A stretch of DNA of 64,000 nt from Schmidtea polychroa (Eukaryota), in contig CM097886.1 in the NCBI GenBank assembly GCA_044892525.1, positions 135,904,001-135,968,000 on the forward strand, given 5' to 3'. The notes under the pieces were generated by a model that was given only the letters and a program-made list of their open reading frames with translations, did no database searches and was not told the DNA's origin. Made by a program: the position numbers and the translations under genes. Position 1 is the stretch's first letter; every line of letters begins with the position of its first letter. This document shows positions 300 through 50,437 of this stretch, in pieces.

Positions 300-1504
300 C
301 TTTATAAGTTACTTTTATACCTGTTTGAAAATTATATAAGTATTTATAGTTAATATTTAGGAGCATGTCATATACAAATAATTATAATTTATAATTTTAT
401 GTTTTACAATTTATAAATTTATATTTTATAATTCATACTTTTTCATTTTACAATTTATAATTTTCTATTTTACCCTTTATAAATTCATATTTTATAATTT
501 ATAACTTTACATTTTTCAATTTATAATTTTATATTTTACAATTTATACTTTTATATTTTATAATTTTATAATTTTATATTTTTTATTCTATATGCTACCA
601 TTTATAATTTTATAATTTATAATTTATACTTTTATATTTTATAATTTATAATTTTATATTCTATAATTTATGATTCTATATTCTACAATTTATAATTTTA
701 TATTTTATAATTTATAATTTTATATTTTCGGATTTATAGGTTTATAGGTTTATACATCCCATTTCTTTTTATGATCAACATGGTTTATTACTTACAGATT
801 TCTCGGTATTATTTGTGAGTTATAATTTCAGAGTTCTAACGCGTCTATAGTCTATATCTAATTAGTTCTAAGTTAATTTTTTATACTAAAATTTCTTCAC
901 TACTATCCTTCATCTATGATTAAAATAAACTCGAATTCTTTTTATTCCAGAATTTTCTATTTCGCGATTTTGATATTTTTAATGGCAATTTTTGTGCCAT
1001 AATTTTTTATTTTTTAATTATTTTTCGTTAATTTGACGTCCATGATGAATTTGGAACGGTTCCAGAACATTCCATGTTAATTTTAATTTAATTTTTATTT
1101 TAACTGATGTTTTATGAATTTCTTTTTAAGATTTTTTATTTTTATTACTAATTTATTTATTTTTCTAAATTTTATTGTTCTAGATGGTTTTTGTGATGGT
1201 CATCGCCATTTTTATGGAATGTTCTGGGTTTTTCTGGAATTCTTTACTGTTTTATTCGAGTCTGTTTTTTTTTGTAACTCTGTTTATTTGGTTATTTTTG
1301 AGTTCTATTTTGCATAATTTCTTGCTTTTGTATAATTTTATTTAATTTCTGTGTTTATGTTTTGTTGTTTTTTCCTTTAATTACCATTGTTTATTTTGTG
1401 TATTTTTAATATTCAACTATACTTTTTGCTTTTTGCATGTTATGTACCTACACATTTCAGTCACAATTATAAGTTTGGGTCTAGAAATCAGTTCTAGCCC
1501 AACA
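300..1504 (-). mobile_element. 5' part of TGTTGGG-family LTR-like element (copy A)
   Basis: Reverse complement starts TGTTGGGCTAGAACTGATTTCTAGACCCAAAC, as does 25512. 900-1504 matches 25512-26130 and ~750-900 matches ~27190-27340. Confidence 0.85.
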
Positions 1505-4049
1505 TTACTAAGACCCAACACAGAACAAATTTATTGATTCTCAATTCAATTTACAAATCGTCACAATATTTGCACCTTGATTTTAATTAATTTTTGGCGG
1601 TTTTCGATTTCACTAATTTACCCTACTTTAATTTTATTTTTTAATTAATCCAAATATTTTAATGAAGGTTAAGGATAATCATATTTAATTAAGAATATTT
1701 AATTAACCATATTTATATTTTGCAGAGATAATAATAGAAAAAATAGTAGAACTTTTCAAAAACTCTTAAATGAGTAAATCTAATACACTTAGATTAGAAA
1801 TCATAAAAATTAAGTTTTAGGACTAGAAATAATTACGATTTTGATTTATTATGTTTCATCAATATGATCAGAATAAATTTGTTTTCTCTGTGAAGACTGA
1901 TTTATTATTGTCATAAAATTAGAAATGATTATCACCGTGCAAAGTTTCGCTATTCATTTGACAAATTTGTCAATCAATATGCGAACTAAATCTTAAAAGA
2001 ATTATGTCATATCAAATATTTTGAAATCTAACGCTTTTCAAGTCGCTTAAAGATAGATTAGTCAGCCATCATTCATCATGAGCTAATCTATCAAACAGTA
2101 AATATTCACCTATACAAAGACTTATACATTTAATTTAAGATTAATTCGGCTTTTAATTTTTTGTCATCTAAGTCTTAATTAAATGTTTTCCTAAAGAAGA
2201 AATAAGAGAACTGAAGTCATTTAATTATCAGTTAAATTCATACCAGTAGTATTTACTGCAACAGAATAATTTGATTATAACGGACATAAAACTAGGTTTA
2301 ATTTATTTTTTATATATATTTCAGTATCAAACACATCAGTAATGGCATTAAATAATGGATCATATTCCCTTGTAACTATTCTGCAGAACTTTATTTATTT
2401 GTTAAATTCACTAACCTATTTCTGAATATGGTCATAGTATTGTTGTAAAATTCGAATACTCATTCATGCTCCATTTATTTTATAAAAAATTTATAGTAAT
2501 ATTTTTGAGCTGTTTTCCTATATTGAGGTTTGAAGCTTTGCTTTATAGTGCATTGTTTAACAAATCATTTGCAATTTTATAATTAACAATACAGAATACT
2601 TAATAATTGATACACTACTTTGTTTTATCAACTTCCTGGTTAACAGAAGTTTAAGGGAATTCTTCAACAATTTTCCATAAACCACCAAAGAAACATACAA
2701 TTTTTAGGTTATATTATACAGTAAATAGATTACCTTAAAACATTTTGAACTCGACAGGGGAGTATTTGACACCTATTTCAAATGCAAAGTAAAATATATC
2801 CCTTTCAGGATTCAAATGTGCTTTATTAGCACATTTGTGTCAATAGCTATTCGCACAAATTAATTAGTTTTTCAAAGAAAGATTCAATACAATTTTGACT
2901 AAAATAGATATAGTTACTATAGATAAAATATAAGTTGAATACATTTTATTGCACAAAAATATAAATCTGTCTGCCTAAATTATTATAATTATTTGAATCA
3001 GTAAGACTGTCGTAAACACTATCTAATTTTCATTTCTAAGCTTTTCTTTACTTCAATTATCATTGAATAAATTATGATTAAGACAGAATTTCCAGACACA
3101 GAATTTATCACATACTATAAACTACAGCACTTCCAGTGTTAATAGAATTCAAAATTATTTATTTATAAACAATATAAAAATAAATCGTTAATTTGTTTAA
3201 GGAGTTTTTCTAAAAATAATAATTAATGAATAGGAATTTCAACATCCAATCATACAAAAATAATTTAATACAAGTTATTGAAAACACCTCACGCATACTA
3301 AAATTCCTTTTGACTTTATGAATGTTTTGTTAAATAAATGTTATAAAAGATAATAAATAAATCTTTAAGTCATTTAAAATCTATGATTATAACAGTTTAC
3401 CTATTGTAAATATATTGGTATAATGAAGGTTATTTAGTAAATATTTTCAAGATATAAGTGCTGACCAAATCGATAAGTAATGTAACCGTAAAAATGTAAT
3501 TAATATGAATGAATTAATTGCAATATTTCAAATAAAAGGAAATAATCGTTTATTTAAAACCCATTCAAATATAAAATTGACTAATTTGTAACAAGGCTGA
3601 CTATATGGTTCATTGTCTTGGTTCATTAATTTTGGTTATTTTAATTTTCTTTTTATTTGATTTCTCTCATCATAGATGGCATAAAAATATTTTGGTAAGT
3701 GAAAATTAAGTATAGCCAATACTTGGACAATCTGTTGCTTGAATTCTCTCGTTTAATTCCACTATTTTTCTATAAATAGACAATGTAAAACGTTCTTCAT
3801 TTAGTGAAGATCAAAGATAATTCTGAATTCATCGTAATCGCGAAGCAATTCACCGCTGAAGCTGTCTCTGATGGAAAAAAACATATTTAATTGATCATCG
3901 CGATTTCATATATTTTTTCGCACGTAACGACAAACTATGGCGAAGTGATGTTCAGGAAGGTTGAATGGTGACAGTTTGCTTTGCTAGTCCTTAAGTGACA
4001 TCAATATATCTGGCTGAGTACAATGACAGAGAAACCCGCGTATTTGTAA

Positions 4050-5467
4050 TGTTGGGCACCTGGGGAGGGCATTTGTCGACTGGTGTGACTAGGGGTTATC
4101 GTTGTGATTTATTCATGCCAGATGCCCAAATGATTTGTTAGAAAAATATTCCCTCCCGTGTACCCATGACTACGAGTCTTGTTGGTGCTGTACACCGAGG
4201 TCGGAACCTGTGAGCAGGTGAGCTCCGTTGCCAAAACTACTCCTCACAGCATTCGCGGTTCGGGTTCGGAATGCCTTAGAAGGACTTACATCACTAAATA
4301 ATCTGCCTCTGGTCCAAGTGAGGTCTTTCGATCGGTCTATGCCTTTGTATCGATGTACTTACAGTGACAAACTCAACATTCCGACAATTGACGAAACAAA
4401 GTAATTTATATAAATTCACAGACAATCAGTTTTATTCTACTAATATGAAATAATAATTAAGAAACACCAATTCCATAAGGGAGTCCTGTCGAATCAGATA
4501 ATTTAAATGTGAGTTTGCCACGATATTGGGCGTTGTATCACTGGAGAGGTTGCGACGATAAGATATTTGTGGTTGGATGATTTGCTAAACCATTTCTCCC
4601 TCTGCCAACATCGCATCGATGTCGCACTCCAAAGCAGGGTCGAGAGGTGGCTGAGAGAGAGAGACAGGCACGACTTTGACGGGAGTGAGGATCTTGGTTG
4701 AAGATACTTCCTTCGTCTGAGAGGCTGCAAATAAAGTCGCCTCGAGGGCTGCCATCTCCTCTCGACGTTTCTTGGTTTTCTCGGCCCGTGTTAGCCGTTT
4801 CTTCCTCTTCTGCTTACTAGTGACTGGCTGTGTGGCTACGGCCGCAGTGGCCTTGGCGATGACAGCGAGAATTGGAGACACTGGAGTTTGGCCATGAGCA
4901 CCGCAACAAAGAGATTGAGCGGCCTTCGGGAGAGTCAAATCGTGATGAGTGGGAAAGAGATTTCCTTTGACTGTTATTGGGTATTCCACTACTCGCGCTT
5001 TCAGTTCAGCGTCCGAGTATATGCGATGAAGGGCAGCCGATTGTGCCTTGATGGTGAGTCTCTGGCTCAGATTTTCCTGCAACAAGCTGTCGCGGCAATG
5101 TTCAAGTCGGAGAATTTTTATGCGAACCTCCTTCATACTGGCAGGGGTGAACCATGTCCCCTCCAGAGTGTCGATTTTGCGTTTCAATGATCCTATATAG
5201 TCGGCCGATTGCTTCAAGAAGGCATTTTTGTCGGCGCACGAGAAGCAGGGTTTCGGGCCGGTTGGAGGAAGGCTTGGTTAATGTCTTTATTCTAATTTCT
5301 TGTGCTCTTTTTTATTATTTAATTTTTCTATTTTTTTAGGTAATTATTTTTACTATTTTTCTATTATTTCCCTGGTTTCTCTTTTCTCTAGGCTAGCTTT
5401 CCCCCTTTATTTTCTATTAATTATAAACTTGAGTATTATTATTTATTTTTTGATCATCAGCCCAACA
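4050..5467 (-). mobile_element. Complete TGTTGGG-family element / putative solo LTR (copy B, 1418 bp)
   Basis: Ends TGTTGGGC...GCCCAACA; 4-bp TSD GTAA at 4046-4049 and 5468-5471; internal ORF and conserved terminal structured region. Confidence 0.85.
4585..5217 (-). CDS. Element-encoded 'EGTW' coiled-coil/basic protein (ORF2 of copy B), probably a spliced exon
   Basis: 210-aa GC-rich ORF. In-frame upstream KPCFSCADK; LKRKIDTLEGTWFTP and LTRAEK motifs shared with copies C and D. Confidence 0.65.
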   Translation of the reverse strand: MKQSADYIGSLKRKIDTLEGTWFTPASMKEVRIKILRLEHCRDSLLQENLSQRLTIKAQSAALHRIYSDAELKARVVEYPITVKGNLFPTHHDLTLPKAAQSLCCGAHGQTPVSPILAVIAKATAAVATQPVTSKQKRKKRLTRAEKTKKRREEMAALEATLFAASQTKEVSSTKILTPVKVVPVSLSQPPLDPALECDIDAMLAEGEMV

Positions 5468-6049
5468 GTAAATTATAAGAAAGGTCCTTATAAATCATGT
5501 GGCTGAGTTCAAGGACGTTATTTATGCCTCAAACGTATATCAAATCACTATTATTTCACAAAAATTACCTTTTGGTGAATAGAATAAGACACTTTATTAA
5601 TTTATTAGTAATCTCCATTTAATTTTCAACTATAGATCAATGTTTTCTATTTAACATAAATTTTCGGCATTGCATAAAAGTTGTATTTTATATTTTAAAT
5701 TAATTTTATTGGATAGAAAATTGTTGTGTTTATTGAATCGCTGATGCGTTATAAATTAAACAATTACATCTCTGATTCCAATAGTGTTTTATCAATTCAC
5801 AAATTTACAATTTCAAACTATATAACCTTTATTAATAATCACAATAGATAGTACAAGTTGCAATTATAACCAATTAACTCGAATATAGACAATTATCCAG
5901 AGTTTATTACGTCACTACATGAAGAATAGCTCTCCGTTTATAAGTCACCAATAACATTAATAATAACTAATCATAGATCGATTTAAATACAGGAATAATA
6001 TACTCGATTTGTTCAATTGCTTTGACCACAATTATTCCTTTTTCCCATT

Positions 6050-7012: not shown

Positions 7013-8260
7013 TGTTGGCGTGCTGCTAGGTCCGCCTTGCCTTTTAATATTTGTCTAGGGAATGGTGGTTTCTCACTTAACTTTCTCTCACAGATTTGCT
7101 GAACCTAAACAGTACTCCAAATGATCACGGCATTATACCCATGAATTGCTTCATGTTGGTACTGTATCATGACGGCGATATATCATAAAACAGGTTAACC
7201 CCTACCTTTGGACTACTCATTCATGGTACCCCGGCTTACTTTCCATGACGACCGATAGAAGGACTTACGTCTTATTTTTCTTATCCGTTCTCATTACGAA
7301 AATCTTGACCTTTTCCCCTCCTCGGAACACACCATTACACATCAGTCAATGTCAAACGAAGAAATATAAATCATCATTACCATTGGAAATTTAAGCTGAA
7401 AATTTATTGCAACTAAGGCTGTTATTTCATACACTGAAGATAACCAGTTCAAGGCGTGAAAATTGAGTAATGAAATTACACTAAGTGAAATAAGATCTCG
7501 TGAGAGACATTCTCATTGATTTTCAACTGCGGCTTAAGCGAAAAAAGCTTCCAAATCGAATATTTCGGATGCATTTTCCTCCCATGTCACACCTGCGGCA
7601 GCAATAACGCGGTATAGCGTGATGGTAATAGATGATGTCGTCGGAACTGCCTCGGTATTCTCATTTGTGACACTCGCATTCTGCTTGTTTTCCTTTTCTA
7701 TGATACGTTCTTTCTGCCGGTTCTTGCGCTCAGCTCTCAATAGTTGCCGGCGTTTGAGCTTCGTTTGCTGTTTTGAAGGGTTAGGTATTCTTAACGTCTT
7801 GGTGATTTAGCTTCCACTCAACTACTGCCAGTAATAATAACTTCCGGGGTGGTAGGTGAAAGATCGGCTTCTACACACCCGTAACACGACTTCCCTGATT
7901 ATCTCTGAGCGCTCTCCGAGCAGCTATTGTGAACTAAATAAACTTTATCCTCTTCCTAGATCAGAATGTAGCCGATTTTCTTAGTTACCGTTGCCTGAAC
8001 GGACACTTTATGTAACGCTTCTGATTGCTCTTTGATTTACAACCTCTGAGATCGACTTCCTCGATCAAACTGTCGCGACAATGTTCGCTGCGATATAACT
8101 TTTTCTGGATTTATTTTACCTGTGCCGGGGTAAGCCAGGTACCCTCAAGGCGATCTATCTTCCGCTTGAGCAAACCGACTTGAGATTGTAGGGTCTTGAT
8201 AGTCGCATTTTTGTTTGCGCACGAAAAGCAGGGTCGGATAGTATACTAGGTTGTTGAGTT
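7013..8260 (-). mobile_element. TGTTGG-family LTR-like element (copy C); 5' boundary uncertain
   Basis: 3' end ...CACGCCAACA at 7013; conserved structured region 7013-7270; decayed ORF2 at 7534-8250. Confidence 0.75.
7534..8250 (-). pseudogene. Disrupted 'EGTW' ORF2 of copy C
   Basis: RPCFSCANK..LKRKIDRLEGTWLTP..EHCRDSL, then KLKRRQLLRAERK; stops and frameshifts present. Confidence 0.7.
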
Positions 8261-23900: not shown

Positions 23901-26900
23901 TATGATCATGAAAAAATATATGTTCATTTATTTTATAGAGGTTAGCTACTATAGACAAACAACGAAAACAACATGAATGGTTACAAAAAAGAATTCATAT
24001 AAACGAAGACTTATCTGATACTGAATCAGATGCACAAGAAAACGATGATGAAATTGTGGAAGAAAACAACGAAATTGAACTTTCCGATAGCGAAAATGAA
24101 CATTTTGGTAAGGATGTGTATTCTTTCATACTCTGAAAACGAAAGTGACATGGATATTACTGAGATATCTTATAATGAGAACAATTTGACCGAAAAATCT
24201 TCTGATGGGACTATATGGCAAATAGAAGGTGGAGAGTGGTAGACCACCAGCTTATCTCACTGCCTATGCTAAAAGAAACATCATGTTCGGTAATGTAATT
24301 AGTGCATTCCAGCTCATAATTGATAATAAAATAATGGATTATATCAAAATTTGCACTGAAACTTAAGCATGCAAAGTTTTGAAAAAGGAATGGACTATTA
24401 CAAATTTCCAAGTACGGGCTTTTCTAGCAATTTTATATGCACGGGAAGTATATGAAGCAAAATGCTTGAAAACTTCTCATTTATGGTCAAAGAAATGGGG
24501 ATCTGCCTTCTATTCGCAAACAATGTCTAGGGACAAATTTATGGAAGTCCTTAGATTTAAACGTTTTGACAAAAGAAATGAACGAAGTGAACGTTAGAAA
24601 ACTGATAAATTCGATTTAGTTTCCAGAATATGGAATAGATTTATTGAAAATAGTCAGAATTGTTTCAAACCTGTCGCAAATATTACAGTCGATGAACAAC
24701 TATTTCCAACAAAGGCTAGATGCCGATTTCTTCAGTACTTGCCAAATAAACCAGACAAATTCGGCATAAAATTTTGGTTAGCATCGGATGTAAAAAGTAA
24801 ATATCTTATAAATGGTTTCCCATATTTGGGTAAAGATGAAATGCTAACGTCAAACATACCTTTGGGTGAATATGTAGTACTCAAACTTCCTGACCCATAT
24901 TTAGGTTGTGGACGAAATATAACCACAGGCAATTTTTTTACTAGTCTTCCACTAGCAAAAAAATTACTTTAGTTGGAACTATCCGTTGGAATAAAAGAGA
25001 AATGCAAAAAATTGCAAAAACTAAAAATGATAATATGATTCGATTTTCAACAAAATTTTATAAATCAGAAAATTACATTCTCAACATTTACATAAGGAAA
25101 CCAAAAAAAGAAAGTATTGTTACTAAATTTAAGCCTTGAATCGGTTAAAATTGAAAACAATGCAAACCTTGTCCCAGAAAGTGTAGCTTTTTCCAAAAAA
25201 ACTAAATGTGGAATTGATGTTTTGGATCAAATGGCGCGAAAATATAGTGTAAAAGCAGGATCTCGTAGATGGCCTCTGCAAGTGTTTTATAACATCTTAG
25301 ACTTAGCAGCAACAAATGCATCGAGTTTATATAAAGAGATTACTGGAGTAAAGATATCAAGAAAAAATTTTATTTTTCAATTGGCCGAAGAACTAGCAAA
25401 TGACAACATAGATGCCCCCAGTTCTAGTTCCAACCTACCATCTAATATATCAAATATACGTAATCGTAAGTCTTGTCAAATAGGTTTGTGTAAAAAAATA
25501 GATCTAACAATTGTTGGGCTAGAACTGATTTCTAGACCCAAACTTATAATTGTGACTGAAACGTGTAGGTACACAACATGCAAAAAGCAAGAAGTATAGT
25601 TAAATATTAAAAACTACAACAAATAAACAATAGTGATTAAAGGAAAAAAACAACAGAAACCTAAACACAGAAATTAAATAAAATTATCCAAAAGCAAGAA
25701 GCGATGCAAAAATAGAACTCAAAAACAACCAAATAAACACAGATAAACATAAAACAGACTCGAACAACTTAAAAGACGATAAAAACCGAAAAAATTCCAG
25801 AAAAACCCAGAACATTCCATTAAAATGGCGATGACCATCACAAAAGCCAGCTAGAACAATAAAAGTTAGAGAAAATTAATAAATTAGTATTAAAAATAAT
25901 AAATCTTAAAAAGAAATTCACAAAAGATCAGCTAGAATAAAAAAAAAATTAAAAATTAACATGGAATGTTCTGGAACCGTTCCAAATCCACCATGGACGG
26001 CAAATTAACAAAAAATAATTAAAAAATAAAAATATAAAAATAAAAACAAAAATTATGGCACAAAAATTGCCATTAAAAATAGCAAAATCGTAAAATAGAA
26101 AATTCTGGAATAAAAAGAATTCGAGTTTGTTTTAATGCATCAATACATACACGTGTACAAAATAGGTATATATACCGACACGTTTCGGGCATAATTTAGT
26201 CATTTATGCCAAAATTTTTTGTTGACCAAATTTTGAAGGAAACTGATAGTAGGTATTTTTTTTTGATTGCATTGTTTTTATGTTAACCATGTATGTAATT
26301 ATTTTAATGAACACCATTCTATAATTAAATTATTCTTACTAAATTCGTTGTTATTTAGATAAATATGACTGATCAGCGGCGTCACTGTGAGTCGCTATTC
26401 CGTCCTGCATTCGGGAATATCGAATAAAAATTTTTTATGCAATCTACCAACATGCATTATTCGTACTATATTAATCGATACTATACGACTTTTTTTTGTT
26501 CGGGTCCTTCGGAGGTCTAACTACTTCATGGTCCTGCCATGGAGTTAGGTCGAGGAAAACCTCCGTCTGACTCTTTGTATTTATGTAAGGTCGACGGTAA
26601 ATGGTTGACTCAACACTCAACACTAAGGTTTGTGGAAGTGGTCACAGTGGGGCCATGGAAGCAATATTCTTCCCGACTTTGTACGTAATACAAATTTAAA
26701 ATCAACATTAAAAATCAATGTCAAATATCTCTACAATAAGGTCTTAATCTGAGTAGAACTCATACCTAACCTTACACAATTCTGCAATCACCTTAATGAA
26801 GTCGGTTGATCAATAATAGCCATTCCAGTTGTACTCAGACATATGCCGAATCCGATTTTGATAATAGAAATTTGTAGTAACTCAAGTAATAGAAATGATA

Positions 26901-28039
26901 GTGTCCGGCATATGTGTGGGTATAACCTCATCTAGTTGGGACTTCGAGATTAATTACTATGCGAATAAATTCAATCTACCTATAGATATTACAAATCTAA
27001 CCGATTAAATTACAGATCTATTAATTCAAGCGCCCATCTTAAATATTTATAAAGATATAAGTACTTATTATAAAATTTACTAATTATAATCAAAATGCAA
27101 GTTATAGATAATTATGAGATTTTAGATATAAATTATATCGACCCTGAAAATATAAATTGATAATGGAGAAGTCTTGATAATAAGTTTTAGATGGGGATAG
27201 TAGTAAATAAATTGTAGCATAAGGATCAATTAACTTAGAACTAGTTATGTATAGACTGTAGACTCGTCAATATTCTGAAATTATACCCTAATAGTACCAA
27301 GAAATCTGCAAATAATTTTAGAAGACAATGTTGATCAGAAAGGGTACTCATAAAGAAGTATACGAGTCGACTATAAAATTATAAACCCTGAATTATGAAA
27401 TGACGAGTGGTGAAGTAATAAAATGATAAATTGTAGAACCTAGAATTACTATTTATAAAGCATAAAATTACGGATTATAAAATATAAATTTATAGATTAC
27501 AAACTACGAAATTGTAAATAGAAAACGTAAAATTTCAAAGTACAAATTCATAAATTGAAAAACATAAAACTATAAAAGATAAAATTAGAAATTATAGAAT
27601 ATAAATTTATAAATTGAAAAAAAAAATTAAAAACTATAAATCATAAAATGTAAAATTGGCAATTATAAAATATAAATTTATAAACTACAAAATATAAAAT
27701 TATAAATAGTAAAGCAAAATTATAAATTATAAAATATAAAGTTATAAATTATAATTAGTTATATATAAAATATTTAGGAATATAAATTATAAATAATTAT
27801 AAGTTCTAACTATAAGAGCAGGGAATACGAATAATTTGAGGTAAAGTCGTATTATAAAATATAATTTGTACCTAGGTATAACTACAAAGTATAAATGTAG
27901 AAATGAATTATAATTAGCTATAACCAAAATTTGACCATGAAGATATAAAGTACAAGTAGCTACTATAGCTTACATCGAAGCATTCGACGTTAAAATTAGA
28001 AATGTAAATTAGTTTTGTTAAAATTATAAAGTATGAATT

Positions 28040-28389
28040 GAAAGTGATTATATTTCCAGTTATCATTCTAAATCGTCACCATTATTATTATNNNNNNNNN
28101 NNNNNNNNNNNNNNNNNNNNNNNNNNNNNNNNNNNNNNNNNNNNNNNNNNNNNNNNNNNNNNNNNNNNNNNNNNNNNNNNNNNNNNNNNNNNNNNNNNNN
28201 NNNNNNNNNNNNNNNNNNNNNNNNNNNGATATTATCCTCATTATCATTATGATTATTATTATTATTATTATCATTATTACCATTAATGTTATCATTAAGA
28301 TTACTATTATTATTATTATTATTACTATCATTATTATTATTATTTATTATTATCATCATTACTACCATTAATATTACTATTAATATTGC

Positions 28390-28438
<49 letters not shown>

Positions 28439-28505
28439 ATTATTATTATTATTATTACCATTAGTACTATTATTATTATTATTGTCGTTATTATCATCGC
28501 TAATA
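28040..28505. repeat. (ATT)n microsatellite with N gap (28092-28227) inside copy D
   Basis: Long ATT triplet array. Confidence 0.9.
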
Positions 28506-29592
28506 CTATCATTGTCCCTATTCATAAGTTGTAGTTCACAAAAATGAAAATCTAAATCAAATATTGATTTAGGATTTCCCCCCGGAGCTAAATTTGGAAT
28601 CAACTTTTTTGAACTAATAGGAATGACTGAAATACTAGAAGGTTATTTTTAGCAACACCCCTCCCCCTAGAAAATGTTAACACCATCTAGGTTAGCTGAG
28701 GATATGGGTGGGAGTACCTGATCCAACATATAAACTACCCCCCTTTAAATCCTGAATGAATGGCAAATATATAACTTCGTTTATTAGAAGATTAAATTAC
28801 TATTAATAAAAACATAAGATTTTTCTTTTATTATGAACAACAAATCATATTACCAAGCCACTAAGAATCAAAAATTATGAATCGTAGGATGATCTCCCAA
28901 AACTAGGCTCATCCATCTCCAACCAGGAAAAGTTATCATCCAACATTCCTGGGAATCAAAATTTACGGTAAATAAATGAATTACCTCAAATGCATGAAAG
29001 TCGACTGTACCACTCATGACGAACACAACCAAGGGAGAGGTAAGCAAACGAGAAACTAAGCTCGTCGCTAATACCCATCACCCCGGCGTGCCCGAATTCA
29101 GTAGTAATTCGATAATTTCCAGAAAATGGCAAAGAATTGACATAAGAATTTTTAAATTACCAACTAGTGGTAAATAACTTTTGGTGAATAAAATAATGAT
29201 TTAAAACAAAGTGACTTTTGGGGAATTATCGATCGGGGCATAAACTTTCTAGTATTAATACTCAACATTGAAAAAATTTTTTCTTTCATTTGATTAATTA
29301 AAAGGATGATAAAATTTTTCTTCCAATTAGTTAGTTAACAAGATACCCAATAAATTAAATCGGAAGTTTCCCGTTAAATGTATGTATATTAATTATGATA
29401 GCTTTGATGATTAATTATTAAATGTATATGCATTGATTGGGATAACCTTGGTGATTAATTGTTGAATATATATACATATTAATAACTTTGGTGATTAATG
29501 CACTATTTGTGTAAAATGTTGTATATTTTATCGTACTTTAAATTTATAAGTCACACGGGCTGCACACGGGTCTTAATATTTATATTACAGAC

Positions 29593-29958
29593 ATGTCGCA
29601 ATCTAGCTCTAGCAGTGACGAGGGTACTGACCAGCAGACGATCACCCGTCTCCGGACCCGGTACATCTGGTACCATATACATCGGTGGGGTCAGGGAAGG
29701 GACCTGGATTGCGCAGCTCGAGTAATCCGGACGGGCCCCGAAGCGGATGCCCCGGCATGGGTGAAGGTGGAGCCGGAGAATAACCGGCTGCAGGAGGCTC
29801 GAGACCAAGCGGCCTGGGACGTGGAAGCCGCACAGATTCGACTAAAGAGAATAGAGGCCCAAATCCGGGCCAAGCGAGAAGGGGTGTCCCTGGAGGAACT
29901 CGAAGAAACCGAAGCAACTCCCCGAAAGAGAGGGAGGCCCCGCAAACATCAGTCGTGA
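29593..29958 (+). CDS. ORF1 of copy D: small protein with C-terminal AT-hook
   Basis: Intact 121-aa GC-rich ORF; TRLRTRYIWYHIHRW shared with 42909-43289; ends PRKRGRPRK. Confidence 0.7.
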   Translation: MSQSSSSSDEGTDQQTITRLRTRYIWYHIHRWGQGRDLDCAARVIRTGPEADAPAWVKVEPENNRLQEARDQAAWDVEAAQIRLKRIEAQIRAKREGVSLEELEETEATPRKRGRPRKHQS

Positions 29959-30252
29959 TTATTGGAGGACAATTAACATAACCTAGTCTATTCCCTTAGT
30001 ATTAGATATCGTCAAGTGTTTGTGTTTAAATAAAGTATTTTGATTTAGTCTATTTTATTAGTATCATAGTTGAGTATTAGAAACCGTAGAGTGGTTGTTC
30101 TTACGTAAAGTATTCTTCCTTTCTGTTGGTTGCATGAGTCAGTTGGTAGATGGAGGGGTTATAAAAATGGCCTAGCGATAAGCGCGAATAACAATATTAT
30201 TTAATCTTACCAATAATTTATTCTATAAAATTTTTTTTTGGTATAAAAACTA

Positions 30253-30738
30253 ATGAGACTCCTTTTAGTGTACAAGCTAATGGAGAACCTGCTTAAAGAT
30301 CGAGAGCAGGCTCAGAAACGTGCTGACGAACTCCGAGTCCGAGTGGACAAATTGAAAGGAAAATGCCGGGAGTTCGAGGGGACCTGGTTTAGTCCCGAAG
30401 CGATGAAGAAGAAAACTGCCCAGATCCTCCAGCTACAAACACAGGCCGCTCAGGACCAAATGGAGATCCGCGCCCTGAAATTGCAGGTGCGGGCACTCGA
30501 GACCGAGCGAAATGAGCAGGTGGTGCAAGAGGCCGTGGCAAGACAAATCCGGCCACTGACCGTTGAACTCGCGGCGATATATCCCCCAGCCGCCGAAAAT
30601 AAGCCCAAAAGAAAACGGCTTGGGCGAAACATTCGGGAAAAATTGAAGAAGGTCAGGCTGGCCGAGTACGAGCGGCAAGCAAATTCATCGCAAGCGTCTA
30701 CGACAGGGTTGGCCAGCTCTACCAACAAGCCGAGTTGA
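30253..30738 (+). CDS. ORF2 of copy D: 'EGTW' coiled-coil/basic protein; likely acceptor before 30269
   Basis: Intact 161-aa ORF; FEGTWFSP, heptad stretch, KPKRKRLGR; same acceptor phase (AG|TG) as copy E. Confidence 0.7.
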   Translation: MRLLLVYKLMENLLKDREQAQKRADELRVRVDKLKGKCREFEGTWFSPEAMKKKTAQILQLQTQAAQDQMEIRALKLQVRALETERNEQVVQEAVARQIRPLTVELAAIYPPAAENKPKRKRLGRNIREKLKKVRLAEYERQANSSQASTTGLASSTNKPS

Positions 30739-30929
30739 ACTTTTATTCTGGTTTATATATCCTTGTAGTGTGTTGTGAATATTTTGTAGTATTAAAAGAA
30801 TATTTTTTTTGTTAAAATAATACATATTTCGTAGTAATAAAATCATATTCGATATATTTTATGATTGCCTGAGAAATGAGAGTTTGTGCGTAAGGTTGGG
30901 AAAACAATTTTGATAAGGGACCTAAGAAA

Positions 30930-31136
30930 TCGGACACACACCTTCTATCGGTAGTCCGTGAACCCATGGAGTACTCGACAATTACAGTGCCTCGATGCGC
31001 TCACTTTTTGCGAGTACTCAACCCTTGGTACAGTACCAACGTTGATTACTCAACGGGTACCAAGCGGAAAGACAATGTTGCATGTTGGGTTACGCTGGTA
31101 ACAGCACTTAAACATTCGACCACCAGTAACCCACCA
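30930..31136 (+). other. Conserved covarying structured terminal region (putative R/U5 RNA element)
   Basis: Same stems with compensatory changes in copies at 4050, 7013, 41487, 41699, 50438 and 58866. Confidence 0.7.
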
Positions 31137-31412
31137 CAATAAATGTGATAAATATGTATGTGGAAAATGTATGTTATTTGTAAAAGTGTAAGAAATAAAG
31201 CTATTATAATAAAAATACATTGTTTCAAATTAAAATTAATAAGTTTCAAATGAAACTAATAAACGTATGTAGTGAGCCGTTACACGGCCTTAACAAAATC
31301 TAATTGGTTGCTTTCATGAAGTAAAGACAAATTATTTACTATATATTTGTTGGAATCACTCGAATCATTTAGTGTAGCGTTTTTAAAATGATTAAATCCA
31401 ACCCCACCACAT

Positions 31413-31461: not shown

Positions 31462-32096
31462 TTATATAAATCATTATAGTAGCTTGACGTAGCCATTTTT
31501 TATTATTAAACTTGAAATTGCTTTCTTTGAAAATACGGAACCATTTCTACATCTTGGCTCAATTGAAGAGATTTTGGGAATTTACATGTTCATGAATTCC
31601 AATGCAAGATTCTACACTACTTGGCTGAATTACTTCTGAAATAGAATTACTTTGAAGAACTAAATTTTACTGTGTCTTTCCCATATGAAATTGTGGTGAT
31701 TGCGAACGGGGAATGGATGAAGATGTTGGTCTATGAGAGCTACCCTTAAAACTATTAGGATACGAATACAGTTAATCTTGATAATAATAACATGGCATCG
31801 AATTTGCTTTACTCGCCTGAGATTGATTAATAGAGCCTGATTGATAAGAAGAATTGCATGAATTTTGATTGACTCTTGGAATGAGATAGAGTAGACTCAG
31901 ATGTTCCAACTAATGTGCAATTATAGGTGATATTTGATTGGCCATAATTGTGTTATAATTGATACTTATTCGTTATTGATCGCCCATTTAGACTACGTTA
32001 CTTTTTGTATATAATATTTATATAGATTTTGTTAAGGCCGTGTAATGGCTCACTACATCAGCCCCATGGGAGGGTAGCGCCGCACCAGGGCCTAAT

Positions 32097-32450
32097 AAGT
32101 TCCAAATATTAATAAAAAATCCTGGAACGAATAAAACACAATCTGTTCCAGTAGACACGAACACGACAATTAATTGTCTTTCTCAAACATATGGCAGTTT
32201 AGCCAATCACAAATTCCGTTTTCTCTTGTCGTACGACACCATGTTTTCCGACAGTCATACCCTGGGCGACTACGGAGTGACACCATACAGCGTCATTCAT
32301 TGTTTGTTGCCACTTTCTGGCGGTTCCTCCGATTTGGAGAATGACTCAGGTAGCAATCACAAACCGACAAAACATAAACGTAAGTCCAACAATCGACGTA
32401 TTTATGTCAATATTTTTTGGATGAGAATAACTCTCCACTTACTTGGCTGA
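32097..32450 (+). CDS. Ubiquitin-like domain ending LSGG, in front of gag
   Basis: Open frame FQILIKNPGTNKTQSVPVDTNTTI...FSDSHTLGDYGVTPYSVIHCLLPLSGG aligns by eye with ubiquitin along its length. Confidence 0.75.
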   Translation, partial: KFQILIKNPGTNKTQSVPVDTNTTINCLSQTYGSLANHKFRFLLSYDTMFSDSHTLGDYGVTPYSVIHCLLPLSGGSSDLENDSGSNHKPTKHKRKSNNRRIYVNIFWMRITLHLLG

Positions 32451-32887
32451 TTGCTACCGAACTAGCATTTGAGGGAATCGAGATAACCAGTTCACGAGAC
32501 AAATACTGTCGCATTTTGCCGTTGAATCACCCGACGATATTAAGTAAACTTTCGTCCGTGATCCTTCGTACTTCGCCTATTAGCGTCAAAAATCCTTATG
32601 AAGAATTGCGTACGGCAATCCTCGATATTTTTAAAGAGCCTACAGCTGCCGTCTTCACTAAATACTTTAAGACGCAAACTTTGGGTAGCAGAAAACCATC
32701 ACGGTTTTTGCAACACGCTATGGCAGAACTAACTCAAATACATCCTGAGACTGCTGTGGATCAAAAACTCTTGAAGCAATTTTTTCTGTCTGCTTTACCG
32801 CCACATGCACAACAAATTTTAGCGCTTTCTTCAACCGCAGATGTGGTAGAGCTAACAAAGATGGCCGACAAGATTAACGAAGTTTGA
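32417..32887 (+). CDS. Gypsy-type Gag capsid-like ORF (DUF7041-like)
   Basis: PLTWLIATELAF..PYEELRTAIL..LGSRKPSRFLQH..FFLSALP..ILA. Confidence 0.75.
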   Translation: MDENNSPLTWLIATELAFEGIEITSSRDKYCRILPLNHPTILSKLSSVILRTSPISVKNPYEELRTAILDIFKEPTAAVFTKYFKTQTLGSRKPSRFLQHAMAELTQIHPETAVDQKLLKQFFLSALPPHAQQILALSSTADVVELTKMADKINEV

Positions 32888-33426
32888 CACATCTGATACT
32901 GAAATTCACTTAGCTTTATTTCATTTCAACAAATTCATTAATCACCGATTTTCTTTTAAGATACTATCCACTTTTGACAAATTGTCACTACACTTCGATT
33001 GACATCTTCCTACTAGACCTTTCATCAACCTCTACTCTTGGGTCCCTGTGCGCTCCGCGACTTTCCGTGGGGCTGATGTAGTGAGCCGTTACACAGCTTT
33101 AACAAAATCTAATTGGTTGCTTTCATGTAGTAAAAACAAATTATTTACTATATATTCGTCGGAATCACTGGAATTATTTAGTGTAGCGTTTTTAAAAAAG
33201 ATTAAATCCAACACCACTACAACGTAATTTTAATATTTTCGTCAAAATGACGGGTTTCAGTAAAAATAGGTATTTACTGTCAGTAAATCTAGTGTTAAAA
33301 CAATGGAAGATGGCCATGATTACTACGAACTAGGCCATATTTCGGAATTAAAAGGAGCACATTAACAAGCATCTTCATGAAACATAGGAAGACTGGAATT
33401 TTATCCGCAGGAACAAGAGGAGCCAA

Positions 33427-34994: not shown

Positions 34995-37900
34995 CTGCAG
35001 CGTTGGTACTGTACCAATGGGGTGATTGTCAAAGTTACAATTTCTTCACAAAACATAATAATAAATAACAATTAACAAATAAAGTATATTTAAATAATGT
35101 AACGGTTCCTTTCTATTATTAAAACAACCATAATTAATATACATTAATTATTGAACATCAATCGCCTCCTCTTCATTTTCTTTCCATCTCTTCAGCCATT
35201 CAATTCTTCTTGATTTGGTTGAGTTTGGAAATTGTAATTCCACTTGTTATTGAATTCCCTCCTTCTTTCGTCTATGTGGTTCCAAACGAACTAATATTAA
35301 ATTCTTGTTATATGCCAAATTTTTTCATCCAATCACGAAACATTGATCCTTCAAAAATTCTTCCTCTATCTTTAAGAATGCTTTCTCGTCTACCAAACCG
35401 ATATATCCAATTATTCAGAATGACATTCAAAATCGTTGATTCACACTGTGTACTTATTGCTGATAAACTGACCAATTTACTAAAACGATCTATTATAACT
35501 ATCATATATTTCTTACTTGCTTTTGTTTCCATATATACAATGTCCACTACTATTTGTTCTAAAAACCGTTCTCCTGTTCTTAGCAATAGGATTTCCTTTG
35601 TTCTTCCTTGATCAATCTTTCTAATAGCACAGATCTTGCATTTATATATACATTCCATAATACTCTGATTCATGGAGGGCCAAAATAGAAATCTTTTAAA
35701 TAACATAAGATCTTCTTAATGCCCAGATAGCATAATTCAATTTGAAAATAATTTACCAATGTTTTTACGTACGTGTCAGGTACTACAACTGTAATTTTCC
35801 TATCTGTATTAATCATCAATATGTCGTCTTGTGTCTGTAATATTTTTAAATACTTGAAAATATTACTACTGATTGTTTCATAAGATATATGAGCATCGTC
35901 TCCATTAAGTTGTGATATGATTTCTGAAATAATTTTGTCTTCGTTTTGCTTCTGTTTAATTATTTCCATTATGTTTGAACTTCCTTACAGACTATTATGT
36001 ACCGAGTTCTACACTTTGTTTCTTTGGCGTCTTTGTGTTTCATCTGACAATGAGCGCATATCGTATAATTTAAACGAGACATACCATCTGCATTTCCATG
36101 TTCTTCTCCCTTCCTATATTGTAACTCAAAATCGTATTCAGATAAATTTTCCATCCATGTTTGAAACTGTGGGTTCTTTGGTTTCTTTGTCGTGTTCATA
36201 AACACCTAAGCCTTATAATCTGTTCTGGCTACAAATCATCTTCCATATAAATATTGTCTGAAATGTACAATAAACTCGTAGAGTGCCAACAGCTCTTTTC
36301 TAGTAACACAATATCCCATTTCATGTGTTGTCAAATGTCTTGAACCACTTCTTCCGTACCACCTTTCTTAATCTGTGATAAAACTGCACCTATGGCTCCA
36401 AAACTAAATAGTCGATCTGCCCTTGAAAATTCTAATATTGGTGCTTCACACAAAATTTTCTTTAAATTGATAAAGCTTTTTCTACATTCTTCAGTCCAAA
36501 CAATCATTTTATCATTACCTGTCGTTGCTGAATACAAAGGTGCTGCTATCATTCAATAATTCTTAAAAAACCGTCGATAATAATTCGTTAAACCTAAGAA
36601 TGATCTCAATTCTGTGACTCTTTTTGGTTCGGTTGCATTTTCAATTTCTGAAATCTTTCTTTTATTTGTTTGAATTCCCTTGTTACTCACAATATATCCA
36701 ATGAAATTTAATACCCATTTATAGAACGCGCATTTCTCAGGATTAACTTTCAAACCGGCATCTCTAATTCGTGTGAATACTTCAAATAGAAGTTTATCAT
36801 GAGTTTCCTGATTTTCTGCATATATTAAAATGTCATCAAGATATAAAACCACTCCTTTGAAAATTAATCCTTCCAATATCTGATGCATCAATTTCTGAAA
36901 AGTGGCAGGGGCTGTTGACAAACCAAATGGCAACCTTTTGAAACAGAACTGTCCCTCTTTTGTACCAAATGCTGTCTTGGTTTATAAATTTTCATGCAAC
37001 TCTACCTGATAATAGGCCTGACCTAAATCAATTAATGAAAATATTTTTGACTTACCAAGATAATCCAATAACAACTGCATGTCTGGCATCGTAAATGAGA
37101 ACTTTTCTGTGACTGAATTTAATAACCTAAAATCTAGACACATTCGTATAGAACCATCTGGTTTTCCAATTATCACAAGTGGTGTGTTCCATGGACTCTG
37201 ACATTTTCTCACAACTCCAGCTTCTATTAAATTCTCTACAAACACTTCAAATTTGCTTTCTAAATGCATTGGTTGTCTTCTGGGATTTTGTAAAATCGGA
37301 GGACCTGAAGTCGTTATTTCATGTATTATTACTTTTGTATGACCTAAGTCAAGACTGGATGCCATAAAAATCTTGCTAAACTTAGATATTAAAGTACCCT
37401 ACTTCGAATTCTTATCCAACGTGAGCGTCGATAACGCAAACTCTAACCTATCAGAATCTGCAAATCTCTTAGTAACCAATGCGGCATCAATATTATGGAC
37501 TTTTTAAAGCTCCATGCCAAATTTTCTCATGGTGTCTACCCCTCTTATGAAATCTGGATGAATTTTTCTGACAATAATAACATTCAATTCTCGACATTTG
37601 CTGTTCCATTTTGCAACGATATTTACGCTTCCGAGAGGTTTCTCGTCTTCTTTTGAAAATACTCCACTCAACCGTACTCTGCTTTCTATCAATGTTGGAC
37701 TGCCAATCAATCTCCAACATTTTTCACTCATCACACTGATTGAAGCTTCTGAATCCCATAGCATTTCAACATAAAATCCTTTTATTTCCATCGCACTCCA
37801 CTTTCTATCATCATCCTTCTTTAACATCACATCCTTCGTTACAACATTTCGTTTTTTATACTCATCTACTATCTCGACCCTACTGACGAAATGTAAACAA

Positions 37901-38790
37901 CAGGGTCTTCGTGTTTTTTTTCTCTCAACATTATGCATGACTGGTTCTATCAATTCTTCTTATCTATCGTCATCTTCTTCGTGTATAACATACACTCTTC
38001 GTTCCGGTCTTTGAGTATTACTTCTTGATTTTGCTAACAAATTACAACTTCTAAATGAATGACCTTCTTTACCGCATATTGCGACACTACGTAAAGAATA
38101 GCTTTTCTCGTATAATTTCTGTAACAAGAATAATCACTAACCGTCAACCACTCAATTACAGCGTACTTTGATCGATTGTTGTATGGCTTTGACCACAAAT
38201 TTATTCACTCCACTTTCACTTTATATTCAATTTTACAAAAGATTCTCGTTACTCTCTTGCTCAATTATTAATTATCAACCAGTTCTCTTCTGCTTATCTG
38301 GTTTCACTCTGGTTTGAACTCTGTTTACTTCTTCTTTTAATTCTCTTTTAATTGTCTCGTTAATTCTCCTTTCAATTCTTCAAATTTAACTCTTTTAGAA
38401 CTCTCGAACTCTCTTCTACTTTGCTTCTTTTCTTCTCGTTCTAACTTCTGTGTCTTCCCTGTTATAGCTTGCCCCATTTGCGGTACTTGAGATAATTTTG
38501 TTTTCTATTTTCTTTTTCCTCGATATTCCCCGCTATTTCAGCCTTATCCCTGACAAATGTTGAGATATGCCCTATTTTACCCTTTCGTGTTGAGCCGACT
38601 TTTCCTGCCATTTCACTATCTTTTGTTTTTCTATAATTTGAAATTCCTCCTTCGTTTGTACTTTTTAATTAACAATGACCTTTGTTTTAATTTCTTGTTC
38701 GCTTTCTTTTATCTTTCTTGTTTTTCATTTCTTTTTATTTCCGTTTTCTTCTCCGAGTTCCCATAGATCGTCATGTTTGTCATGATGATC
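34995..38790 (-). mobile_element. Decayed Ty3/Gypsy gag-pol with PPT and truncated 3' LTR
   Basis: CCHC knuckle ~38045-38090; protease LWDSEAS; RT (MCLDFRLLN, MPFGL, YLDDIL); RNase H; integrase (HLG-like, VDIV..IIDRFSK); purine tract at 35162-35174 then TG. Confidence 0.9.
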
Positions 38791-39990: not shown

Positions 39991-40269
39991 ATTTATGAGA
40001 AAAAAAATATTCTTATAGAAAATATATAAATCAAAACAAAATATAAAAATAAAATATAAAAAATATAAAAATATAAAAATAAAAAATATAAAAATATTAT
40101 GAATTGTTTAACATCAACTGTTTCAGTTAGAGAGAAAAGTAGTTGAATTTTATATATTTATTTTATTTTCACTGTGACTTTGACACTTGTACAAATAATT
40201 GAACTATTGCACTGTATAATTGCACTTTATGATTGATTGTATCACTGCATAACTTCATTTTGCTATACA

Positions 40270-41698: not shown

Positions 41699-44600
41699 TG
41701 GTGGGTTACAGGTAACCAAACGTTTTACCTTGTCGTGCTGTTTCCAGCGTAACCCAGAATACAACGTTTTCATACCGCTTGACACCCGTTGAGTGAACAA
41801 CTTTGGTGATATGTCAAGAGGGTGAGTGCCAGCAAAAGGTGAGCGCAAAGTCCGCACTTTAATTGGCAAGCACTCCCATGGGTTTACGGACTACCGTTAG
41901 AAGGTTTATGTCTACTTTACATGGTCCCTGTCGATAGATTGAGCTCCTCTCCATTACATTGCTCCTTTCATCCTCCCTCTACTATCCCTTTTGCATATCA
42001 TGCTTGGTAGTCACCTTGTCTATGGGTCGGTCTGCCTCGTTAACACGAATTAACCCGAAAATTTCGTTAAGTTAGCACGAGTGGTTATGGGTCGACTCTG
42101 TTGTTGGCAGCTGTGTTCGACCAAATGACTTCAGACGGTTCCGAGCATTCTTGTGTCATCTCGTAGAACAGATCTGTTCGGTCGCGTCTCGGTCTAGCTT
42201 CTGCTGTTGAAGCTCCGTTTCTAATTTCCGGACCTGCAGCCTGAGTGCCCGGATCTTCGCCTGATCCTGCGTGGCTTGAAGTTGTAACTGCTGGACGAGT
42301 TGCATTCTTTTTCGCATCTCGCCGGGGCTAAACCAGGTGTTGGAGAGTCTCTACCTGTCACTCCGCCTTCTCCCGGTCTTCTCGCATCTTGGAGAGTAGT
42401 TCGATCACTGCAAAACAATATGATAAAGTGTAGGTAGGAACCGTGTGTGTCTCAGTTATGAATTTATACGAGAGTCTCTTGCGGGTAGACGTCATTATTA
42501 ATCCCCACGAATTTAGGCAGGCAGTTACCGTCTAGTACACGCCGCGACCTTTGTGAATCCTAAATCGTCATTTACCTATCCTTCCCTCTTAATAAACAAC
42601 AATAAGGACGAAAATTAATTTGCTCGTTCTGCCCGTGACATGCAGGCATCGTACGTGCATAAATAAGAATGAAAATAAACAGAAAATACAATAATAGCTA
42701 AATTAATCACATCGTTTATCAATACAGGGTAAGTAAGTATCTCAATGGGTCGTCTTTCTGGACCTCGCGATTCAGTTATTGTCGCGTCTCGCCACCTTCC
42801 GAGGTCGGTCACGTCTTCGAGGACCAGGCTCCTGGGCAGGGTGCGTCAGTTTGGATTTTTGTTATGACCTGGCATGCCAGGTGTTAAGCTTGGCGACCAG
42901 TGTTAGGTCTAAGCGGACCCGGGCGTTCTCACTGGGATTGATCGAATTTCATGATTCGTCCGCAGGAGGTCCGGGATCGCGTCCTCGGCGGCTTGGACGA
43001 CCTTACCATTTGCTTCCAAGGCCGGATTTGGGAGAGCCTCCTCCTTGGGAGTGACTAGACAGGTGTTCCCGTTGGCAAGGTCGGCTTGCATTTGACAGCA
43101 TCCATCGTTCCACGAGTGGATCTCATACCAGATCCACCCAGTTCGTAACCTTGTGATTGATTTTGTAGGTGGGTTTGTATCGGGGGTCTCCTCCTGCTCG
43201 TAACATGAGTCCGGACACTGCTCCTCTGACGACGGCCCGGCCCCATATTCTTCTTTATAGTTTCCGTGATTGGAAAGTGAAAACAACATTCAGAGCTAAT
43301 CGTGACATTGGTCTGGTTCGCCGATATTTTAATTATTGCATAAATTCCTATCTGTCCCATCTACACTCGCACACGTACGCCTATTCCCACGTGTTCTCCT
43401 TGTAACTTCCAGTACATTGTTCTGCACTCAATAACGTTCAACGCACTGTGTTCACTCTATAAGTTTCAGTAATTCCATACAAAACCCATCCGAGCGAAAC
43501 CCACCACCGCCTGGGACTCCACACGACTAACTGTTGAACAAACAAAAATTCGTTTATGTGGGATAGGGGACTATCCAGATGTGCATTTCAGCAAATAAAA
43601 CAGATGTTAGTGATTAGTGTACTTGTTTCTATCTTTAAGATTTGCCCTTCGTTAAGATTTATTATTGCTATTTGAGTCCGACGTTTTAGAAATCTAGTTT
43701 TATCTATCTTTATTGCAAGCGATTTACTTTCAGTAACATTTATTCTTAAAAATAAAATTTCCCTGTCTTTTAAGATTGATATTTAATTCAAGTTTGTTTA
43801 TCTCTATCAGTAGAGATTTACTTTGATTATTATTTATGTTTAGCATTCAAATTTGTTGACTAAAATTAGTTTATTATCTCATATTTAGAACAGCATATGT
43901 AGTTCATTTGCCGAAAGGGGGTTTTGTCATCGATGTGATTTATTGGTTTCATTCCTTGGCTCCAATATCTCCTCGTTGACAAAGAAGCTTACAACGGCTC
44001 GAACTTCATTTACAAACTATTTGTTGACATGTTGTTTGGTTTTTAATTCTTTTTTGTTTTCAGGTCATCGTATTAGGACACACACAAACCAGTTGGTTAT
44101 GGGCCTATGCTAGAAGTCTTTACATTTGGTAGATTTGCGCAGGTCATATTCCCGTCTTTTATTATCAGAATCTCCTATTCGTCTCATCAGCATTTCCACA
44201 CTGGTTGGATTTATTTAGGCGGATATCAATATTTGATTGTTGGAATATTATGTCTCCTTTAGTTATTCACGTTTAATGAACTCTATGAATACTACAAGAA
44301 CATATAACCCGAAGTTAAAAGTTGGTTATTATTCTCGTTGCTTCTAGCTGCCTTCTGCTGTTATGATCATGCTTCTTTTTGTTTTCAAATTATATTTTTA
44401 CCTCGCCAGGGGTTTGATTGTTTAATATTTTGCTAATTATTTTACTCCTTATTCCAACTTGAGTTAGAATACTTGTCACAACCGATTGTGTAAATAAATG
44501 GTTATACTCGGCTTGGTTTGTTTTTTATTTTTTATTATTGTAATTAATTTAAATTTTCACGTGTTTAATTATATTGGATTTCTTCTAAGCATCTGATTTA

Positions 44601-47635: not shown

Positions 47636-47636
47636 T

Positions 47637-49947: not shown

Positions 49948-50437
49948 AACTAAAACCAAGAAATACAGCTGCAAAATAATAAGTGGTGGTTTGTCTTGAA
50001 TAAGTAACATTTGGAACTAAAATAATTCTTTTCATTTATAAGTATTCTTGAAATAAAATAATTTTTAATAAGTAATATTTGGATATAAAATAATTCTTTT
50101 TTCTTCTTAATACTTAAAAAAATAATATGTAAATAAAATAATTCTTGATATGATTCTTTAATACTTGAAAATAATACAATTTTTTTTATAATAACAGCTG
50201 TCCAAAAATTTGAATGAATGCAGTATTGAGATGTCACCTCTTATGATTAGGCAAAAGAAGTTCACGGAAGTTCTTGCTTAGTAGTATGTTGTGTGGTCAC
50301 TCTGCTCGGAAGTAAGCAGCATTCAAACAGCACATAGAAAGGAGTCCTTGCAGTTCACTTCTACAACAATTTATAGTATAAAAATTCACTAGTACAACAA
50401 ATCAGATCGATTTGGTCTGTTTCTGAAGTGTGAAAAT

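Follow-up and report, generated by a model that had tools for sequence, protein, structure and literature searches.

A selected protein family with a predicted coiled coil encoded within the LTRs of Burro-type giant Ty3/Gypsy elements, with a candidate RNA partner in the same LTR

Several diverged copies of a gene for a small protein with an EGTW motif are present in the window, the whole stretch of 64,000 nucleotides of AT-rich eukaryotic DNA analysed here (source assembly of 781 Mb), and the question raised by this locus is what such a protein is and on what it may act. It had been proposed, from the letters of the DNA, to be a selected accessory protein of an unrecognised family, possibly an oligomeric nuclear RNA-binding factor in the manner of Tat or Rev. 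All the peptides quoted in this original prediction were found in the four window copies (B, C, D, and E), which are listed below with the features that surround them.

4045-4048 and 5468-5471: 4-bp target duplication (GTAA) of the copy B LTR.
4049..5467, minus strand: solo LTR with copy B (TGTTGGG...CCCAACA), internal loss of about 1.9 kb.
4146..4291, minus strand: RNA element at the 3' end of the copy B LTR, two bulged stem-loops, donor-like GTAAGT at its 5' edge.
4585..5277, minus strand: copy B of the LTR gene, 230 open codons; a deletion took the acceptor and start codon.
4725..4812 (approximate), minus strand: basic helix of copy B, KQKRKKRLTRAEKTKKRREEMAALEA, 12 K/R in 18 residues.
4945..5250 (approximate), minus strand: conserved core of copy B (CFSC, helix 1, EGTWFTP break, helix 2, FPxHH), a predicted parallel coiled-coil dimer.
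7121..7270, minus strand: RNA element downstream of copy C (covariance model E 7.8e-11), LTR-end-like sequence at about 7013.
7600..8245 (approximate), minus strand: copy C, decayed, with stops and frameshifts.
25512..31136, plus strand: full 5.6-kb solo LTR with copy D, Burro1-like family, target duplication CAAT.
29593..29958, plus strand: second LTR ORF, 121 aa, with a C-terminal AT-hook-like KRGRPRK, in D/E-type LTRs only.
30280..30738, plus strand: copy D, unbroken, 152 aa, with an acceptor-like TTTTAG 11 nt upstream of the ATG.
30934..31073, plus strand: RNA element downstream of copy D (covariance model E 8e-08).
41769..41911, minus strand: RNA element downstream of copy E (covariance model E 1.6e-05), LTR end at 41699.
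42070..42410 (approximate), minus strand: copy E, a decayed D-type copy.

Copy B carries LKRKIDTLEGTWFTP and KRKKRLTRAEK on the minus strand, in a frame of 230 open codons (4588-5277), and has about 14 linker residues fewer than its closest relatives. Copy C contains LKRKIDRLEGTWLTP near 8146, with KRRQLLRAERK in a different frame, whereas copy D, which runs from an ATG at 30280 to a stop at 30738, includes KCREFEGTWFSP at 30376 and KRKRLGR. Copy E is broken, with TWFSP at 42338 and the residues preceding TW out of frame. The CFSC motif described upstream in B and C was located at 5247 and 8230, respectively, and falls outside the span first given for the gene (4585-5217), which begins at TTG. 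Copies B and D had both been regarded as intact; this holds for D, whose ORF is unbroken and whose solo LTR is complete, but only the open frame of B remains, because the LTR deletion of about 1.9 kb removed its acceptor and start codon. Copy B probably does not yield the complete protein. Three of the four window copies (B, C, and E) are damaged. An antisense frame at 4795-5190 was treated as a shadow frame and discarded as a gene.

The core shared by the four copies reflects one homologous gene, with a similarity beyond chance. Copies B and C matched each other in tblastn (E 2e-20), and D scored 24.6 bits against a profile built from 16 B/C-type copies only, a score reached by none of 1000 shuffles of D (best 11.0), while all six other ORFs of the same elements scored below 0 bits with this profile.

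At least hundreds of copies were found in the genome, many of them in solo LTRs with 4-bp target duplications. Searches of the same genome returned at least 177 matches with copy B as the query (150 of 6017 candidates scored), at least 150 of 6391 candidates with D, and at least 150 of 7121 candidates with a third type; 132 of 150 D matches and 141 of 150 third-type matches were without internal stop. The copies reside in units of about 3.4, 4.2, and 5.6 kb that have common sharp ends, TGTTGGG and CCAACA/CCACCA. An exact 4-bp target duplication was present around five of the seven B-type LTRs examined (of the other two, one has an inexact duplication and one is a 3' LTR) and around five of five D-type solo LTRs. 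In two long natural elements, both LTRs contain the gene, the LTR pairs being 99.2-99.8% identical and target duplications being present; the occurrence of a near-identical unit at both element ends, with target duplications, identifies these units as LTRs. A primer site just 3' of the 5' LTR can pair with the 3' end of the host tRNA-Pro(TGG), and its position and complementarity indicate that the gene is sense to pol; it lies 400-540 bp from the LTR 3' end, its placement in U3 being an assumption. The gap between the primer site and the LTR end is 6-8 nt (L046:560-600; L113:6141-6170). Across the genome, the tRNA 3' pattern was counted 2164 times, and the occurrences listed form a tandem array with a period of about 475 bp.

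The interiors of these elements encode PR-RT-RH-IN, a Monjiviricetes-type fusion protein, and RING, MATH/TRAF, and ankyrin proteins, to which the D-type element adds a CCHC Gag and a BIR-RING ORF; a Bcl-2-like cargo match is weak (E 0.058). Locus coordinates give sizes of 34.7 kb (the D-type element) and 28.6 kb. Burro/GYPSM1 are described as giant Ty3/Gypsy elements of planarians (PMC6431247), and the accessible portion of that description has in common with our elements a length of about 29-35 kb, long LTRs, an Env between Gag and PR, and accessory ORFs, as well as Ubl/MATH/Bcl-2-like/BIR/RING/ankyrin cargo. Our elements have an Env in frame upstream of PR and the order PR-RT-RH-IN, TG...CA LTRs with a target duplication and a tRNA primer site, and MATH, BIR, RING, ankyrin, and Bcl-2-like cargo at a size near or over 30 kb. 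By its match to the published description, the host element is assigned as a Burro-type giant Ty3/Gypsy element, and the organism that carries it is accordingly likely to be a planarian. A 5'-truncated LINE, a DNA transposon, and a Helitron were ruled out by the direct repeats, the primer site, and the Gypsy pol.

In the 28.6-kb element (L046:3695-4700), whose LTRs are 99.8% identical, a Gag-like N-terminal piece of only 28 residues was seen, with no CCHC knuckle. The idea of a 4.2-kb-LTR family devoid of Gag was dropped: the one element examined was without CCHC, but the spacing of other LTR pairs is about 2 kb greater. A tandem array of units of about 74 bp (L046:2083-2745) is located between the first RING ORF and the polyprotein.

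Other features of the window were recorded in parallel. The second LTR ORF of the D/E type, which was not found in B or 4.2-kb LTRs, has an LRTxxIWYxIHxW motif, an AT-hook Pfam match below the cut-off (E 0.018), and a relative at 42912-43289 (minus strand). An (ATT)n/(AAT)n microsatellite (28092-28494, plus strand) inside the D-type LTR differs in length among copies, and a fragment of a D-type LTR 5' end lies at 335-1504 (minus strand). A large inverted repeat at 47636-49948, with arms of about 850 bp that are 93% identical and nested tandem units, interrupts a remnant that is presumably piggyBac-like and related to 24259-24972. A decayed ordinary Gypsy pol with protease and RT matches was found at 35138-37959 (minus strand), and a ubiquitin-like ORF at 32046-32887 (plus strand) stands beside a DUF7041 ORF, in a small unit between 146-bp direct repeats (31267-31411 and 33076-33221). 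Three likely host genes, all on the plus strand, we take by eye to encode a short-chain dehydrogenase (40237-41067), a CDGSH iron-sulfur protein (45922-46266), and a RING-finger protein (53482-54888).

Selection on the gene was analyzed in 69 of 90 loci having an unbroken frame that reaches the normal end, 64 of them distinct after removal of duplicates. Codon maximum likelihood gave an omega of 0.111 for the core in 15 B-type copies and 0.088 in 26 copies of the 4.2-kb type, and of 0.080 and 0.244, respectively, for the basic segment; these loci were picked by protein similarity and an open frame, a choice that biases omega downward. Constraint was weak in the linker (0.44 and 0.61, in the same order), the tail gave 0.49 and 0.25, and 23 young D-type copies gave 0.39. 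An omega of 1 was rejected (2dlnL 388, 119, and 25), and third codon positions had 2-4 times more differences than the first and second (0.44 vs 0.21 and 0.15). Between families, dS is saturated and yet the protein is conserved, which the bias of copy choice does not explain. The dN/dS among genomic copies is thus far from 1, a value that would have spoken against selection.

Proteins of this family are predicted to be helical and are 150-250 aa long. The AlphaFold2 model (mean pLDDT 63, pTM 0.33) predicted helices at residues 15-41 and 49-101 parted by GTWFSP, a disordered linker, a helix at 182-212 spanning the basic segment, and at the terminus a short acidic helix. When residues 10-116 of one copy (L097) were modeled as a pair, with no use of the alignment, an in-register parallel coiled coil was obtained with a score of 0.63, against 0.00 for the best of three controls; the runs showed a contact agreement of at least 98% and a pLDDT of at least 82. 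In a microbial benchmark, 21 of 30 solved homodimers attained the mark for a dimer and none of 23 monomers did; in a eukaryotic one, 17 of 29 homodimers and none of 30 monomers did so, with the caveat that coiled coils may pass through likeness to solved ones. The core is therefore predicted to form a parallel coiled-coil homodimer, and the modeling lends support to the word oligomeric in the original prediction. In full-length copies, the basic arm holds 9-12 K/R per 18 residues. An acidic DIDAML-like tail is present in the B and 4.2-kb types and absent in D, and a single CxxC is found in the B/C types and absent from the D type and from distant relatives.

No Pfam, PDB, Foldseek, or Atlas family accounts for the EGTW protein, which remains, as first described, an unrecognised family. 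Pfam profiles and PDB folds gave no Gag (CA/NC) or host-domain match, Foldseek gave no match at E<=0.001 against PDB and BFVD, and a word-index search found none at E<=0.001 among 740 candidates of similar length; no viral-contig relative was found among 45 pattern matches, and the best Atlas neighbors (0.79 and 0.89) are unnamed clusters. A Gag fragment was rejected as its identity, and neither a CCHC knuckle nor a capsid fold was found in the EGTW protein. Two matches below the cut-off, to Pfam REV (E 0.0013, in one of 15 distant relatives) and to nodavirus coat proteins in their Arg-rich N-terminal segment (E 0.09), both concern the Arg-rich arm only and can be compositional, and a Pfam scan of the genome copies gave no Rev-family match. 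With an omega far below 1, no Gag or host-domain match, and a location within the LTR, the EGTW gene is almost certainly a real, selected LTR cargo, as the proposal of a selected accessory protein implied.

A profile search of 1.84 billion representatives returned 15 matches. The two distant relatives tested share about 30-40% identity with anything in this genome, and such relatives are thus likely to come from another species. GTW, E71, and PxHH are kept in the distant relatives and CFSC is absent, and many have Arg-rich arms such as NRRRRERRR. Twelve of the 15 (P0002-P0016) fuse the EGTW domain to unrelated Pfam domains (transporter, phosphatase, actin, ion channel, and others); these are likely chimeric gene models that have absorbed an LTR exon. 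Annotators should thus be warned that most of the 15 database relatives resemble such models.

A structured element had been suggested downstream of the gene, and a covarying structure was indeed detected behind all four window copies. Double-sided changes were observed in 19 of 43 predicted pairs over 20 LTR ends, and 97.6% of paired cells could pair, against 88% in shuffles (0 of 500 reached this value) and 30-46% when the alignment was slid, although the relatedness of the copies and the derivation of the structure from the same alignment inflate these statistics. A covariance model built from 15 B/4.2-kb-type copies gave six window matches at E<=1, four of them, on the correct strand, behind copies B, C, D, and E and the other two at further LTR ends. 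The z-scores of single-sequence folding were modest (-1.9 and -2.3), double changes were seen in only 4 of 56 pairs in a D-type alignment of five sequences, and Rfam gave no match at the gathering score within the window. The two further LTR 3' ends with the RNA element (50438-50642 and 58954-59128, both minus strand) had no EGTW motif nearby.

The sequence upstream of the gene carries possible signs of splicing. Of 52 distinct upstream 40-mers, 44 held an acceptor-like site (a pyrimidine-rich YAG at most 25 nt from the ATG), compared with 429 of 3280 random windows (13%), the acceptor counts being taken over related copies. Most internal accessory ORFs have an AG 0-3 nt from an ATG. Acceptor-like sites before the EGTW ATG and most accessory ATGs make many spliced mRNAs likely, and these signals suggest that such mRNAs may coexist with one unspliced genomic RNA. 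The RNA element of the B and 4.2-kb types starts with a nearly invariant donor-like GTAAGT/GTAAGA, which is missing from this position in D and E. Among contigs of four runs, only presumed to be RNA, those of X1 covered 30 of 30 bins of the 4.2-kb LTR, including its non-coding parts, and X7 gave pieces in the ORF; no joint with clear GT..AG ends was seen in the presumed-RNA contigs on this LTR. Neither a TATA nor a poly(A) hexamer was seen to be conserved in the LTRs, where such signals were inconsistent.

The predicted dimer, the constrained basic helix, the acceptor-like sites, and the conserved RNA structure in the same LTR lead us to favor, tentatively and at a little under an even chance, a Rev/Rex-like regulator that would bind the structured LTR RNA of its own element. 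The element would yield one unspliced genomic RNA and many spliced mRNAs, and the EGTW protein would be translated from a spliced mRNA that terminates in the 3' LTR. Its basic arm would bring it into the nucleus, where the parallel dimer may present two basic helices on flexible linkers to the bulged stem-loops of the RNA element, and the bound protein would tip the balance towards export or stability of the unspliced RNA. Several points argue against this reading. Matches to a leucine-rich export signal were not enriched and were inconsistent across copies, shuffled tails of full-length copies matching the pattern about 50-80% of the time in most cases, and no match was found in D-type tails. 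Priming, dimerisation, packaging, or polyadenylation would in any case lead one to expect structured RNA at an LTR end, and the protein and RNA element would share an LTR with or without binding.

Other explanations of the same features have to be considered. The dimer's paired basic helices might instead bind LTR DNA or chromatin and, with use of the acidic-hydrophobic tail, activate or de-silence the element, for which foamy-virus Tas and transposon anti-silencing proteins are models. We consider this DNA-level role possible but doubtful: the predicted parallel dimer and basic helix would suit it, as would the DIDAML-like tail of the B/4.2-kb types and the AT-hook-like ORF adjoining the gene in D-type LTRs, and a bZIP cluster among the Atlas neighbors (0.84) is a lead only; nevertheless, a variable disordered linker parts the basic helix from the coiled coil, unlike in bZIP, the tail is weakly constrained (omega 0.25-0.49) and missing in D, and no DNA-binding family was matched. 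Silencing of Burro1 by PIWI, as given in the accessible portion of one report (PMC8532177), is also in line with such a role.

It is unlikely that the protein is a host-modulating cargo whose coiled coil engages a host partner, with the basic stretch serving merely as a nuclear localisation signal, a role for which MMTV sag and Nef are models. The LTR protein does diverge fast, its identity being about 28% across families that are 75-79% identical in Pol, and other Burro cargo aims at apoptosis and ubiquitin pathways according to the available text of two reports (PMC6431247, PMC13465017), but no host-like domain was found, constraint on the basic helix in B-type copies (omega 0.08) matches that on the core, and the basic arm of distant relatives exceeds in length and Arg content what a localisation signal requires. 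A particle-associated RNA chaperone or packaging factor, helping Gag to select or condense a genome of about 30 kb, would agree with the Arg-rich arm and its weak match to the nodavirus coat N-terminus, with a structured RNA that adjoins the primer site, and with the great length of the genome; such a factor is very unlikely here, given a protein without CCHC knuckle or capsid fold and a D-type element that encodes a CCHC Gag separately. Damage to three of the four window copies could point to a non-functional frame held open by GC-rich LTR sequence or recent amplification, an explanation rendered highly improbable by the third-position excess, a core omega of about 0.1, the conservation of the protein between families despite saturated dS, and the relatives at 30-40% identity.

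The Rev/Rex-like regulator may be compared with known systems. As far as the sources covered describe them, HIV Rev, HTLV Rex, HERV-K Rec, and MMTV Rem are like the EGTW protein in being small, basic, oligomeric (predicted here), produced from a spliced mRNA (likely here), and accompanied by a structured LTR RNA, and their Arg/Lys-rich motif is present in the EGTW protein; the HERV-K RcRE is reported to be located in U3 (PMC6916052, in the part available). The EGTW protein differs from them in having no significant homology, a long predicted parallel coiled coil, export-signal matches no better than chance, and a Ty3/Gypsy host element, and its ORF lies wholly within the LTR, so that solo LTRs keep the gene. 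It would resemble Rev/Rex at best in its working, by analogy, and is not a member by sequence. The Cys-rich zinc domain and core that Tat has beside its basic motif are not seen, the EGTW protein having its single CxxC in the B/C types only.

MMTV sag and HIV nef are LTR-overlapping genes that encode membrane-associated host modulators with an architecture unlike that of the EGTW protein. They share with it, as do the plant additional ORFs (PMC7264820, in the portion available), the position of an accessory ORF at the 3' end of an element, in or beside the LTR; the plant ORFs are described there as lying between pol and the 3' LTR and not inside the LTR. A closer precedent is CERV of the C. 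elegans Gypsy element Cer1, which, in the accessible part of its description, is required for genomic RNA export (PMC10309623). Both are novel proteins of Ty3/Gypsy elements with self-association (a predicted dimer for EGTW) and a proposed role in unspliced-RNA export, CERV being made from a spliced mRNA. Compared by description, CERV is a large protein that has a G domain and an M domain with a Cys loop, whereas the EGTW protein is of 150-250 aa, predicted to be all-helical, and LTR-encoded. CERV nonetheless supports the Rev/Rex-like reading, as it shows that factors of this kind can arise in Ty3/Gypsy elements.

The available text of the published account of Burro/GYPSM1 (PMC6431247) covers polyprotein domains and internal accessory ORFs, whereas an LTR gene and a conserved LTR RNA structure are features of the elements here. 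A gene inside Burro LTRs is not described in the portions covered of the Burro and retroelement literature (PMC6431247, PMC8532177, PMC11410931, PMC13465017, PMC13524379, PMC7264820), although the primary Burro papers, supplements, and repeat libraries may already show it. The element is known, and the selected LTR protein family with its candidate RNA partner is apparently undescribed.

Planarian genomes are rich in Burro elements, of which one family is reported, second-hand, to support stem-cell survival (PMC13465017, in the part available). An element genome of about 30 kb in which many accessory ORFs are flanked by acceptors has to keep unspliced and spliced RNA in balance, and the literature covered names no factor for this. 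The LTR gene and the adjoining covarying RNA constitute a concrete, testable candidate protein-RNA pair. We regard with some doubt the further idea that the Burro LTR is a self-contained module, comprising a convergent Rev/Rex-like protein and its RNA element a few hundred bases downstream, in which solo LTRs would supply the regulator in trans and place the response element on host transcripts. If the EGTW protein is Rev-like, it would represent an independent origin of the Rev strategy in Ty3/Gypsy elements besides CERV, with solo LTRs that retain both parts.
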